Shown in pieces: positions 23,765 through 29,986 of a stretch of DNA of 64,000 bases. The notes beneath the pieces were generated by a model. That model was not told the origin of the DNA. It worked only from the letters and a program-made list of their open reading frames with translations, and did no database searches. Origin of the DNA: Escherichia coli. GTDB lineage: Bacteria > Pseudomonadota > Gammaproteobacteria > Enterobacterales > Enterobacteriaceae. Position 1 is the stretch's first letter, and each line of letters begins with the position of its first letter. A program made the translations under genes and the position numbers. Location of the stretch: the NCBI RefSeq assembly GCF_003334765.1, contig NZ_QOWT01000007.1; one strand, written 5' to 3'.

Positions 23765-26942
<3,178 letters not shown>

Positions 26943-27233
26943 GGTTCTCTCCCTAAAAATCTGTCTGGCAGGGTAGCGATTTGTGCGTATTGTCACGATT
27001 GAGATTTTTTAAGGTGAGAGGAAATTGATAACTTGTAGTTATGTGAAATCGCTATTTTCTGTAGCGTAGATGCATTCTTCTGACTTCTTGTCTGAGAAAA
27101 TGCATAAGAAAAAATAGGTTAAAATTGAGGGGTGGAAAAGAAAGGTGCAATGTTTAGCCATTGTGTTCACCGCACCTGGACTTTGGCTTACGCATCGGGT
27201 ATCTCAATCAACAAAAAGAGTTTTTAGTTTCTG

Positions 27234-28058
27234 CTATTTCTTCTCTGTAATTTTTACACTGTTTTCCAACTGCTTGATGCTGACCTGCGGGGTCGGCAAC
27301 TCCTCAGGCATGGTTCCGCCAAGTTCCTGAATGGTTTGCATCACCTTGCTACCCACGTCAAAGTGTGTGGTATTAGCTTGCTGTTTTGAATTCACGCCAT
27401 CCCGCTTGAGTTTTTCTTCTGTTTGGGTAGCTCGAAAGAGATTAGCCGCCAGTTCTGTTGAACCCATATGATCCAGGATCTTCTGATTCTTTTTCAGCCC
27501 CTTCCGCTGATGAATAGCTTTCTGATCTAATCCACCATACAGCCCCTGGTAACCATGATTCTGAAATATGGCGAAATCAGTAGCTGTCGCTACCCCAGCT
27601 TGCTGTGCTGCCTCAACCAATTGTTTGTTATGTTCTTTCAACTCATTTCTCAGAAACAGACGCTTTTCGTCTTCACGAAGTTGCTTAAATGCTTCATCGT
27701 CAGCAAGCTCCTGCCGTCGGGTCTGGATAGCAAAATAAGTCTGCCCTGCCGCAATGACCGGTTTCGCAGGGTCGCCGTTTTGTACTACCAGGTAACAGGC
27801 ATAGCGGGAGAGTACGATGTCTTTTAATGCTCTTTTGGCATTTGAGCCAATTTTGACCATATCGAGGATCTCCTCGAAATGGTCATCAATTGTGTGACCA
27901 CTGTTCTCACAGGCTTCTTTGGCGCGCGTTAATACAGGTATAAAGTGACGATACTCTGAATAACCCAGTAGTTTCCCAAGTTGTCTTGCTGACCATTGTT
28001 CTGCTCCGTTTGCATTAATCAGTTTTATCTCTTCAAAAGGTTGATGATGTTCGTTCAT
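27234..28058 (-). CDS. dinD: DNA damage-inducible protein D, with Bro-N-like N-terminal domain
   Basis: ORF 27234..28070; start placed at MNEHHQPFEEIKL (274 aa); LexA box upstream. Confidence 0.85.
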   Translation of the reverse strand: MNEHHQPFEEIKLINANGAEQWSARQLGKLLGYSEYRHFIPVLTRAKEACENSGHTIDDHFEEILDMVKIGSNAKRALKDIVLSRYACYLVVQNGDPAKPVIAAGQTYFAIQTRRQELADDEAFKQLREDEKRLFLRNELKEHNKQLVEAAQQAGVATATDFAIFQNHGYQGLYGGLDQKAIHQRKGLKKNQKILDHMGSTELAANLFRATQTEEKLKRDGVNSKQQANTTHFDVGSKVMQTIQELGGTMPEELPTPQVSIKQLENSVKITEKK

Positions 28059-28103
28059 TGCCCACTCCATGTGATATCAATTGCAAAGAAAGTAAATCTG
28101 TAA

Positions 28104-28119
28104 CTGTATTTATATACAG
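28104..28119. promoter_or_regulatory. LexA (SOS) operator upstream of dinD
   Basis: CTGT-atttatat-ACAG, the canonical CTGT-N8-ACAG box, about 45 bp upstream of the dinD start. Confidence 0.8.
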
Positions 28120-28279
28120 TTGTGAGTATCTCACGTTCTCAGTGTGCTGGGCAAAAAAACATCGCAAAATCTGGAGCAGGCACGAAAAACAGAATTGAAA
28201 GTTGCGGGGAAGAAAAATGCCGCTCTGTTTGAGTGGGCGGCATTTGTGAAGGCTGAAAAGTAAGAATTGGCGTTACGAG

Positions 28280-29143
28280 TTATTCAATATTCTGAATCTG
28301 CTCGCGCATCTGCTCAATCAACACTTTCAGCTCAATCGCGGAGTTTGTCACTTCGGCATTGATAGACTTCGACGCAAGAGTGTTCGACTCGCGGTTGAAC
28401 TCCTGCATCATAAAGTCCAGACGACGACCAACGGCTTCTTTTTTCTTCAGAATGTTGTAGGTCTCTTTGACATGCGCTTCGAGGCGGTCCAGTTCTTCGG
28501 CAACGTCAATTCGTTGTGCCAGCAGAACCAACTCCTGCTCCAGACGGTTGTTTTCCAACTGAACCTGAGCATCTTCCAGCTTCGCGACCAAGCGTTCACG
28601 CTGCCATTGCAGGATTTCCGGCATATGGGAGCGGACTTTGACCACTTCGGCGGTGACGCCTTCCAGACGCTGCTCGATCAATGCTTTCAGTGCCTGACCT
28701 TCGGTTTCGCGCGCGACAATAAAGTCGTCCAGCGTACCATCCAGCGCCGCGAGAATTTCAGCGGCAATGGCGTCAAGATCCTGCTCCTGGGCTGCCATCA
28801 CGCCCGGCCAGCGTAGAATATCAACCGGGTTGATTTCCCCTTCGTCACTCTGCATTTTTACCCAGTTCGCGGCAGTTACCAGCTGTTTAGCCAGTTTTTC
28901 GTTGAGGATCAGCTCACCTTGCGCGCTAACATCTGGCTCATAGCGCAGGGTACATTCCACTTTACCGCGCGTCAGGCGAGAACGAATACGCTCGCGAACG
29001 ACAGGTTCAAGGCTACGGAACTGCTCCGGCAGACGAAAGTAAGTTTCCAGATAACGCTGGTTTACCGAGCGCATTTCCCAGGTTGCGCTCCCCCATTCAC
29101 CCTTGATTTCACGCCGGGCGTAGGCGGTCATACTGCGGATCAT
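28280..29143 (-). CDS. yicC: YicC-family (UPF0701) protein
   Basis: 287 aa MIRSMTAYARREIKGEWGSATWEMRSVN; divergent from rph. Confidence 0.85.
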   Translation of the reverse strand: MIRSMTAYARREIKGEWGSATWEMRSVNQRYLETYFRLPEQFRSLEPVVRERIRSRLTRGKVECTLRYEPDVSAQGELILNEKLAKQLVTAANWVKMQSDEGEINPVDILRWPGVMAAQEQDLDAIAAEILAALDGTLDDFIVARETEGQALKALIEQRLEGVTAEVVKVRSHMPEILQWQRERLVAKLEDAQVQLENNRLEQELVLLAQRIDVAEELDRLEAHVKETYNILKKKEAVGRRLDFMMQEFNRESNTLASKSINAEVTNSAIELKVLIEQMREQIQNIE

Positions 29144-29269
29144 AGACGTTCCTGTTTATAAAAGGAGAGGTGGAAGGATTATAGCCATCGATGCCTTGTC
29201 AGGATAGGAATAACCGCCGGAAGTCCGTATAATGCGCAGCCACATTTGTTTCAAGCCGGAGATTTCAAT

Positions 29270-29986
29270 ATGCGTCCAGCAGGCCGTAGCAATAATCAGG
29301 TGCGTCCCGTTACCCTGACTCGTAACTATACAAAACATGCAGAAGGCTCGGTGCTGGTCGAATTTGGCGATACCAAAGTGTTGTGTACCGCCTCTATTGA
29401 AGAAGGCGTGCCGCGCTTCCTGAAAGGTCAGGGCCAGGGCTGGATCACCGCAGAGTACGGCATGCTGCCACGTTCTACCCACACCCGTAACGCTCGTGAA
29501 GCGGCGAAAGGTAAGCAGGGTGGACGCACAATGGAAATCCAGCGTCTGATCGCCCGTGCGCTTCGCGCGGCAGTAGATTTGAAAGCGCTGGGTGAGTTCA
29601 CCATTACGCTGGACTGCGACGTGCTTCAGGCTGATGGTGGCACGCGTACCGCTTCGATTACGGGTGCCTGTGTGGCGCTGGCAGATGCGCTACAGAAGCT
29701 GGTGGAAAACGGCAAGCTGAAAACCAACCCGATGAAAGGGATGGTAGCCGCGGTTTCTGTCGGGATTGTGAACGGCGAAGCGGTTTGCGATCTGGAATAC
29801 GTTGAAGACTCTGCCGCAGAGACCGACATGAACGTAGTGATGACCGAAGACGGGCGCATCATTGAAGTGCAGGGGACGGCAGAAGGCGAGCCGTTCACCC
29901 ATGAAGAGCTACTCACCTTGTTGGCGCTGGCCCGAGGGGGAATCGAATCCATTGTAGCGACGCAGAAGGCGGCGCTGGCAAACTGA
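29270..29986 (+). CDS. rph: ribonuclease PH, full-length wild-type allele
   Basis: ORF 29246..29986; start at [10 protein letters not shown] (238 aa); C-terminus ...[13 protein letters not shown] intact. Confidence 0.9.

Follow-up and report, generated by a model that had tools for sequence, protein, structure and literature searches.

The yicG-dinD-yicC locus and identification of dinD

In a 64-kb stretch of Escherichia coli DNA (contig NZ_QOWT01000007.1, hereafter the window), the region ordered gmk-ligB-yicG-dinD-yicC-rph-pyrE-slmA-dut includes the gene dinD, which is the subject of this analysis. The explanation that we favour, with moderate confidence, is that dinD is a LexA-repressed accessory gene in a self-contained 1.16-kb island-relic segment, and that it encodes a DdrC-like two-domain protein that would modulate RecA. 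Judged from its sequence, the gene of the window is the known E. coli gene dinD, and as a genome feature dinD is already known. The deduced protein matches the NCBIfam equivalog NF008573 with 483.5 bits against a cutoff of 242, residues 1-274 aligning with profile positions 6-279 of 288. The longest open reading frame (ORF) of dinD spans 27234..28070 on the minus strand and the annotated start is 28058, a start that is supported because GGAG precedes it, because RefSeq annotates identical loci in this way and because the MNEHHQPFEEIK N-terminus is conserved in the family. Features of the locus are collected in Table 1.

All three genes, yicG, dinD and yicC, are encoded on the minus strand, contradicting the opposite orientation that the original prediction had described for dinD. 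Its flanks, given there as about 230 and 210 bp, were stated imprecisely, since by annotated starts the spacers measure 291 bp between yicG and dinD (26943-27233) and 221 bp between dinD and yicC (28059-28279). The flanks are AT-rich, as had been noticed, with a GC content of 40-44% compared with 50-58% for the genes on either side. Over 2.8 kb, the yicG-dinD-yicC region is 100% identical to that of several clinical isolates, such as p10A.

Table 1. Features of the yicG-dinD-yicC locus, in window coordinates (a point marks features without a strand).
Feature	Position	Strand	Basis or remark
yicG coding sequence (CDS), 205 aa, trimeric intracellular cation channel family; conserved flank	26325..26942	-	ORF list and RefSeq annotation of identical loci
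Intergenic DNA on the yicG side, common to genomes without dinD; empty-site homology stops at 27116	26943..27116	.	Local alignment with the ST131 locus L001, multiple alignment
Accessory segment, 1163 bp, containing dinD and its signals only; GC 40-48%	27117..28279	-	Alignment with ST131-type genomes
Putative terminator-like hairpin 3' of dinD: 10-bp stem (27143-27177) and U-rich tail	27133..27177	-	RNA fold
dinD CDS, 274 aa and stop	27234..28058	-	ORF list, NCBIfam match, RefSeq annotation
16-nt CAACTGCTTGATGCTG, reported to be shared identically with tisAB RNA; antisense to the 3' end of dinD	27267..27282	+	Sequence; PMC2577331
Basic C-terminal helical bundle, codons 129-245; part aligning with the DdrC C-terminal domain	27324..27674	-	
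Bro-N domain, codons 10-105, modelled as β-hairpin and winged helix, acidic	27744..28031	-	
Allelic cassette, codons 12-82; K-12 type in the window	27813..28025	-	Alignment with the EDL933-type allele
GGAG, Shine-Dalgarno-like, 7 nt upstream of the ATG at 28058	28065..28068	-	Read from sequence
LexA (SOS) box AACTGTATTTATATACAGTT, 44 bp upstream of the dinD start codon	28102..28121	.	Conserved in E. coli loci L002, L003, L017
yicC intrinsic-terminator-like hairpin, 9-bp stem followed by UUUUUCUU	28215..28245	-	RNA fold -12.4 kcal/mol, z = -3.66, 0 of 200 shuffles as good
yicC CDS (YicC/YloC endoribonuclease); conserved flank; empty-site homology resumes exactly at the stop codon	28280..29143	-	

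dinD is an accessory insert in E. coli

A census of 5426 complete E. coli genomes, 5425 of which have the yicG and yicC flanks, establishes that dinD is an accessory insert in this species. In ST131-type genomes the distance between yicG and yicC is 251 bp and the 1163-bp segment 27117-28279 is exchanged for 77 bp, with breakpoints placed by local alignment at 27116/27117 and 28279/28280, which bears out the single-gene insert of the original prediction. Because the 77 bp of the genomes without dinD are unrelated to the segment, the two states are alternative alleles and not the products of clean insertion or excision. The ST131 empty site (L001:2293-2369) has an inverted repeat just downstream of yicC. 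Empty-site sequence was present in 710 genomes (13%) and the C-terminal part of dinD in 4714; approximately 408 of the latter (about 9%) fall below 80% coverage through internal deletions or as remnants (e.g. L002), and both the LexA box and the dinD ORF are retained in 4306. No copy of dinD on a plasmid and no genome with two copies was found among the census genomes. Apparent plasmid carriage of dinD is inflated by chromosome-size records filed as plasmids in PLSDB (NZ_CP141089.1, 4.94 Mb; NZ_OL790696.1, 4.80 Mb; CP125156.1, 5.37 Mb; NZ_CP119140.1, 2.17 Mb).

LexA box and transcription signals

The LexA box of the form CTGT-N8-ACAG that had been predicted upstream of dinD was recovered at its exact position, CTGTATTTATATACAG occupying 28104-28119. 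The bare pattern is not rare (0.57 occurrences expected per window); the extended sequence AACTGTATTTATATACAGTT is the sole site in the window within three mismatches of the LexA consensus TACTGTATATATATACAGTA, from which it differs at three positions, and no such site appeared in 100 shuffles. A LexA box near the consensus in its promoter region places dinD in the SOS regulon, and published work lists the gene as having a known SOS box (PMC6590174) and as SOS-inducible (PMC2577331). Other E. coli alleles keep the box, a truncated copy included. Within 300 nt upstream of dinD at eight non-E. coli loci (from Pectobacterium, Pseudomonas, Limnobacter, Chlorobiaceae, Salmonella, Yersinia and a metagenome assembly), there was no CTG-N10-CAG and nothing closer than eight mismatches to the consensus. 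SOS control of dinD would, in this small sample, be specific to E. coli.

A scan with consensus promoter and terminator patterns returned nothing, and both hairpins of Table 1 were detected by folding only. That of yicC sits between yicC and the dinD promoter region. The hairpin 3' of dinD was missed by the consensus scan because of its 15-nt loop, and the 111-nt region around it is not unusual as a whole (z = -0.19). No sigma-70 promoter is proposed for dinD, and no Rfam family matches within 26800-28400. As for the 16 nt identical to tisAB RNA, no effect of tisAB on dinD mRNA was detected (PMC2577331).

In several E. coli genomes with otherwise 100% identity to the window, among them NZ_CP026199.1, NZ_CP148385.1 and NZ_CP027205.2, the yicG-yicC stretch contains an ISL3-family element (ISKox3 or ISEc53). 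ISKox3 lies in the dinD-yicC intergenic region (window ~28059-28279) of NZ_CP027205.2 and NZ_CP018109.1, where it could uncouple dinD from the LexA-box promoter.

Domain structure of DinD and its two N-terminal alleles

Residues 10-105 of DinD belong to the Pfam family Bro-N (PF02498; E = 4.6e-7, 30.8 bits, model positions 1-88 of 96), and PF02498 is precomputed for all 120 listed DinD homologs. The resemblance to Bro-N/KilA-N domains anticipated in the original prediction therefore holds in its Bro-N part, whereas KilA-N gave no Pfam match at E ≤ 10. Neither of the two findings named in advance as speaking against that prediction, absence of a Bro-N match and universal presence of dinD, was obtained. 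Residues 106-274 contain no ANT, KilA-C or other Pfam domain besides noise at E > 2, and no nuclease, transposase or homing domain was detected in the protein. Sequence and profile searches of the PDB revealed no detectable solved structure; matches to RNA-polymerase-N in the PDB searches, also weak in Pfam and NCBIfam, were rejected as noise.

An AlphaFold2 model built from a 40-sequence alignment (mean predicted local distance difference test score, pLDDT, 90.7) displays an N-terminal β-hairpin and winged helix, joined by a long linker helix to a C-terminal helical bundle. The helices extending from residues 129 to 245 form a compact bundle, and not the coiled-coil-like C-terminal half that had been proposed. 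Across sequences down to 39% identity, 14 positions are invariant and 37 nearly invariant. At codon 240 (27340-27342) the window encodes Met through a single-base change, ATG for AGG, where EDL933 has Arg and at least 90% of 40 diverse family members have R. This substitution might weaken the DinD of the window.

E. coli dinD occurs as two alleles that differ only in codons 12-82, which span most of the Bro-N domain. Within this cassette the K-12 and EDL933 types are 54% identical in nucleotides and 46% in amino acids, while the rest of the gene is 98.4% identical. The K-12 type, to which the window belongs, was found in 1899 genomes and the EDL933 type in 2814, which together with the 710 empty sites account for 5423 of the 5426 genomes. 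Over the whole family the N-terminal variable region is likewise the least conserved, with a mean pairwise identity of 38% compared with 48-55% elsewhere. There are also DinD variants of approximately 400 aa that carry two different Bro-N domains in tandem followed by a single C-terminal domain (L015:8001-9218; P0063, P0108, P0011, P0014). One such tandem gene is situated precisely between nrdA and nrdB, which encode ribonucleotide reductase, the kind of place where selfish mobile genes are typically found. The two alleles, the low conservation of this region and the tandem N-terminal variants mark the N-terminal domain as an exchangeable cassette.

Structural relationship between DinD and DdrC

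A Foldseek search of the PDB with the DinD model returned six DdrC chains as the six best matches (E = 1e-4 to 1e-2, probability 0.99-1.00, 239-254 aligned columns); the seventh match had an E-value of 0.6 and a probability of 0.06. The model has the two-domain fold of DdrC, comprising β-hairpin and winged helix, linker helix and C-terminal bundle. A fold search of AFDB50 yielded only DinD-family proteins among the top 50 and no further related family. For comparison of sequences, DdrC orthologs were obtained via a published cloning primer and confirmed at E = 1e-96 to 7udi, and a 26-sequence DdrC alignment was built. Aligned by hhalign, the C-terminal domains alone gave P = 2.3e-4 and 44% probability, and crossed controls of N- against C-terminal domains gave P = 0.3-0.86. 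Invariant or nearly invariant positions coincide at R137/R121, G155/G139, D196/D175, E202/E181, L203/L182, F208/Y187 and H232/H211 (DinD/DdrC numbering). In both proteins an acidic N-terminal domain is joined to a basic C-terminal domain, and in both families the N-terminal domain is the most variable part.

Several results count against common descent. The Foldseek template modelling (TM) scores between DinD and DdrC are only 0.3-0.47, values that are low because the two proteins differ in the orientation of their domains. The full-length hhalign comparison, although collinear (DinD 133-243 on DdrC 117-222), reached E = 0.003 and 10% probability, and that of the N-terminal domains alone was not significant (P = 0.12). 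None of the 26 DdrC sequences matches a Pfam family, Bro-N included. By sequence search DinD does not fall into the DdrC family, as BLASTP gave E = 5.6 and the DinD profile retrieved no DdrC from the PDB at E ≤ 10. On balance we hold it to be quite probable that DinD and DdrC are remote homologs built on the same two-domain plan. The link was not found in the literature searched, and the two structure papers on DdrC describe it as lacking homologs beyond Deinococcus and refer to neither DinD nor Bro-N (PMC9303277, PMC11347143).

Relatives, genomic contexts and origin of dinD

The DinD family is large, with approximately 8000 clusters (50% identity) at E ≤ 1e-3 and 611 at E ≤ 1e-30, from many phyla. 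E. coli DinD is 73-83% identical to homologs from Pectobacterium, Yersinia, Aeromonas, Pseudomonas, Limnobacter and a Chlorobiaceae genome, and such identity across phyla indicates horizontal transfer. Islands with an integrase and flanking att-type repeats were found at the related loci L004, L011 and L013. In Pectobacterium, yicC is followed by a tyrosine integrase gene and dinD, bracketed by a 35-nt direct repeat as a 3.2-kb unit. A Salmonella island (integrase, AlpA, Bro-N, ASH, primase) ends with dinD a few genes from yicG-ligB, and a Yersinia island, which includes a primase in its sampled part, also ends with dinD and adjoins yicG-ligB (L013). The att-like sequence CGTGTACACATGGGTGTAC lies about 25 nt past the dinD stop codon in all three genera. 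In E. coli itself, 17 genomes (e.g. EC18) contain between yicC and dinD a 6.3-kb island with an integrase remnant, which is flanked by TGTACAC-containing repeats and, at its yicC-proximal end, shows homology to the Pectobacterium junction. To judge from its relatives in other genomes, the segment most likely represents what is left of one island from an integrase-borne family that targets the DNA just downstream of yicC.

Two observations argue otherwise. In EC18, dinD lies outside the resident island, and a repeat search and a core search of the window revealed neither an integrase nor an att-like repeat nor a match to the Pectobacterium att core, so that dinD does not appear there as the cargo of an island. 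Because the window retains no remnant of an integrase or att site, we infer the origin of the E. coli segment from other genomes. The sequence GGTGAACACAATGG, inside the terminator-like hairpin of dinD, was considered as an att remnant and dropped, its resemblance being loose and the alignment unconvincing. The original prediction had also suggested a domesticated phage module; the repeat-bracketed unit of Pectobacterium and the Salmonella and Yersinia islands uphold the origin from a mobile element, whereas the phage antirepressor architecture did not stand.

Full-length DinD homologs are rare in phages, occurring in 42 of 50,697 phage records, mostly Streptococcus satellites. A further 213 partial actinophage matches, outside residues 8-274, are most likely Bro-N-only proteins. 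Two unannotated 174-kb records of Campylobacter phages, A18a and A11a (MG065686.1, MG065691.1), hold a 99.3%-identical dinD and were set aside, since they probably contain E. coli DNA. In the Streptococcus (Javan) satellites the dinD homolog is located between the integrase gene and a repressor-like gene, and a divergent operon contains separate "antirepressor" and KilA genes. These counts, the lack of ANT and KilA-C, the resemblance of the C-terminal domain to the DdrC bundle and the many homologs in restriction-modification (R-M) operons speak against the phage antirepressor-like architecture that had been predicted. It is very unlikely, in our judgement, that DinD acts as a LexA-controlled antirepressor of the phage type, its Bro-N domain inactivating a prophage or satellite repressor in the manner of Tum of phage 186 or the Gifsy antirepressors. 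Such a role would account for the Bro-N domain, for the designation of a truncated copy as 'BRO family protein' by PGAP, for the strong LexA box and for the homologs on satellite-like islands and the partial actinophage matches, and LexA-controlled trans-acting antirepressors do exist in Salmonella prophages (PMC3121763). However, with no ANT, KilA-C or KilA-N match, the C-terminal two thirds of the protein form a conserved DdrC-like bundle; homologs in other taxa have no LexA box, many of them residing in R-M operons or as lone chromosomal inserts without a nearby prophage; the Javan satellites place dinD on the integrase and repressor side, away from their "antirepressor"; and no cognate repressor is linked to dinD in E. 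coli, where the neighbours are yicG and yicC and there are no prophage genes.

Lone dinD inserts occupy a variety of unrelated positions: the gene follows gyrB in Pseudomonas, separates ibpB from yidE in Citrobacter and interrupts the nrdA-nrdB pair of a metagenome assembly. Together with the absence of dinD from 13% of E. coli genomes, its truncation in about 9% of carriers, its reported dispensability and the Met at position 240 of the window, where at least 90% of the family have R, these inserts would suit a gene with no selected host function, a selfish or neutral passenger that travels as a mobile single-gene cassette, is maintained by horizontal transfer and decays in E. coli. We regard this, too, as very unlikely. 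The strong conservation of DinD, in its invariant and nearly invariant positions and in the high identity across phyla, implies that its function is under purifying selection; 4306 genomes keep both the LexA box and the ORF; and the protein has no detected nuclease, transposase or homing domain.

A second recurrent context is that of type I R-M systems. In Limnobacter (with SMODS/SLATT) and in the Chlorobiaceae genome (with RhuM), dinD lies inside hsdM-hsdS-hsdR operons, and published examples include an hsdS-dinD fusion in Bibersteinia and dinD/RhuM coding sequences between hsd genes. A RhuM-family pseudogene also adjoins tRNA-Sec in E. coli EC18 (L017:2251-2585). This pseudogene, the RhuM gene of the Chlorobiaceae operon (L009:11132-12146) and the published coding sequences indicate a recurrent association of DinD with RhuM.

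The main rival to our explanation, possible but on present evidence unlikely, is that DinD is primarily an anti-phage defence or R-M accessory protein, which might, for instance, sense foreign or broken DNA in concert with type I R-M enzymes or satellites. In E. coli it would then be a stand-alone, SOS-wired version, and the N-terminal cassette would recognise phage or partner proteins and diversify by arms race. The PADLOC candidate PDC-S13 (PDLC04919) matches DinD residues 2-274 at 8e-120, the first 267 positions of the 717-position PADLOC model 'Specificity_I' correspond to DinD, and PDC-S05 has the DinD N-terminal domain in common; these matches are explained by the copies embedded in or fused to R-M systems. 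A defence role would also be in keeping with the hsd operons and the Bibersteinia fusion, with the satellite homologs beside the integrase on the side transcribed with a repressor-like DNA-binding gene, with the AbiEii that adjoins dinD in Pectobacterium, with the deep divergence of the two E. coli alleles and the tandem variants, and with horizontal spread. On the other side, the presence of dinD in defence loci is guilt by association, an argument from gene context. The literature searched contains no experimental defence phenotype, no paper on PDC-S13 and no relevant paper linking DinD with Bro-N or with defence, and its defence-island and hotspot papers are without dinD. In E. coli dinD stands alone, far from hsd genes, and its LexA control and the effects on RecA reported in vitro fit a role in DNA damage.

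The insert status, the two alleles and the R-M and satellite links suggest that dinD is a "repair" gene drawn from the mobile or defence gene pool. Such an origin, if true, would change the reading of dinD reporters and of delta-dinD phenotypes across E. coli strains.

Proposed function of DinD

dinD is counted among the earliest din genes to be described (Kenyon and Walker 1980, cited in PMC2577331), and a recent SOS review lists it only as a "DNA-damage-inducible protein" (PMC6590174). The protein is cited as a remover or inhibitor of RecA on postsynaptic (duplex) filaments in vitro (Uranga 2011, via PMC4849656 and PMC10602874). The pcsA68 allele confers a recA-dependent cold-sensitive phenotype, and the gene is reported to be dispensable (PMC2577331). 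DinD is probably an SOS-induced DNA-binding dimer that modulates RecA.

The mechanism that we propose starts from a segment in which the yicC terminator, the LexA-box promoter region, dinD and the terminator-like hairpin follow one another. Integrase and att sites would have been lost from the ancestral island, and SOS control is seen only in the E. coli lineage. Upon cleavage of LexA, DinD would accumulate and, by analogy with DdrC and probably as a dimer, bind DNA through its basic C-terminal bundle; its target may be duplex DNA or, as for DdrC, nicked or broken DNA. Bound DinD would destabilise or block RecA on duplex (postsynaptic) DNA, as reported in vitro, while the variable N-terminal cassette might contact a protein partner. 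What weighs against a central place for such a mechanism is that 13% of genomes are without dinD, about 9% of carriers are truncated and the gene is dispensable, so that any housekeeping repair role must be minor.

Relative to the literature searched, the fold link with DdrC, the two-allele N-terminal cassette, the evidence for an origin from islands targeting yicC and the E. coli-specific SOS wiring are new.

The rph ORF (window 29246-29986) reaches the full-length C-terminus (...ATQKAALAN). E. coli K-12 MG1655 carries the rph-1 frameshift, which the strain of the window seems to lack.

Comparison with known systems

The closest known counterpart is DinD (PcsA, NF008573) of E. coli K-12, encoded by the same gene at an identical position. 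MG1655 matches the 2.8-kb region over its full length with 98.6% identity, and the K-12-type N-terminal allele and the same LexA box are found in both, although the strain of the window is not K-12. RecX and DinI have, to our knowledge, folds unrelated to that of DinD. Like DinD, they are small proteins under LexA control for which modulation of RecA filaments has been reported (PMC4849656), whereas their genes are core genes and dinD is accessory and horizontally mobile, with two alleles.

Phage BRO/Bro-N antirepressors have an N-terminal Bro-N domain in common with DinD, and the LexA box of E. coli dinD follows the regulatory logic of SOS-controlled antirepressors (PMC3121763). They differ in that the ANT and KilA-C domains are unrelated to the C-terminal domain of DinD, in the rarity of full-length DinD in phages and in the lack of a linked repressor. 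PDC-S13 and the HsdS-DinD protein of Bibersteinia (Btr190I) are related over the full length of DinD by hidden Markov model match, and the 717-aa fusion (AFDB W0R9F0) matches the DinD model at E = 1e-29. In contrast to these R-M-embedded forms, the gene of the window stands alone, hsd genes being absent from its vicinity, and is preceded by a LexA box, which the sampled R-M-embedded homologs are without.

DdrC of Deinococcus radiodurans (PDB codes 7qvb, 7udi and 8u0g) is the best and only specific structural match to DinD and extends over its full length. Its N-terminal β-hairpin and winged helix, which are Dachshund-like, have the same layout as in the DinD model, and both proteins are induced by DNA damage. 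DdrC is described as controlled by DdrO/IrrE and not by LexA. DdrC is a dimer that binds nicks and breaks through basic surfaces and compacts DNA, and its acidic winged helix has been proposed to bind a partner (PMC9303277, PMC11347143). The domain-swapped asymmetric dimer and the lesion binding are known for DdrC and would be candidate properties of DinD. The DdrC family is limited to Deinococcota (131 clusters), in contrast to the roughly 8000 clusters of DinD relatives in many phyla.

A wider scenario, which we advance tentatively and think rather unlikely as a whole, would place DinD and DdrC in one pan-bacterial superfamily of dimeric sensors of DNA lesions (nicks and breaks), disseminated on integrase islands, in phage satellites and in type I R-M operons, with exchangeable acidic Bro-N cassettes setting partner specificity. 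The E. coli copy would have been domesticated under LexA and the Deinococcus copy under DdrO/IrrE, and the ancestral role would have been in mobile-element conflict, sensing restriction- or phage-induced breaks, and not in repair. DdrC has been described as Deinococcus-specific with a novel mode of lesion recognition; a credible fold link would make DinD and DdrC members of a large family, and provides for DinD a testable biochemical hypothesis, namely that a dimer binds nicks and breaks.

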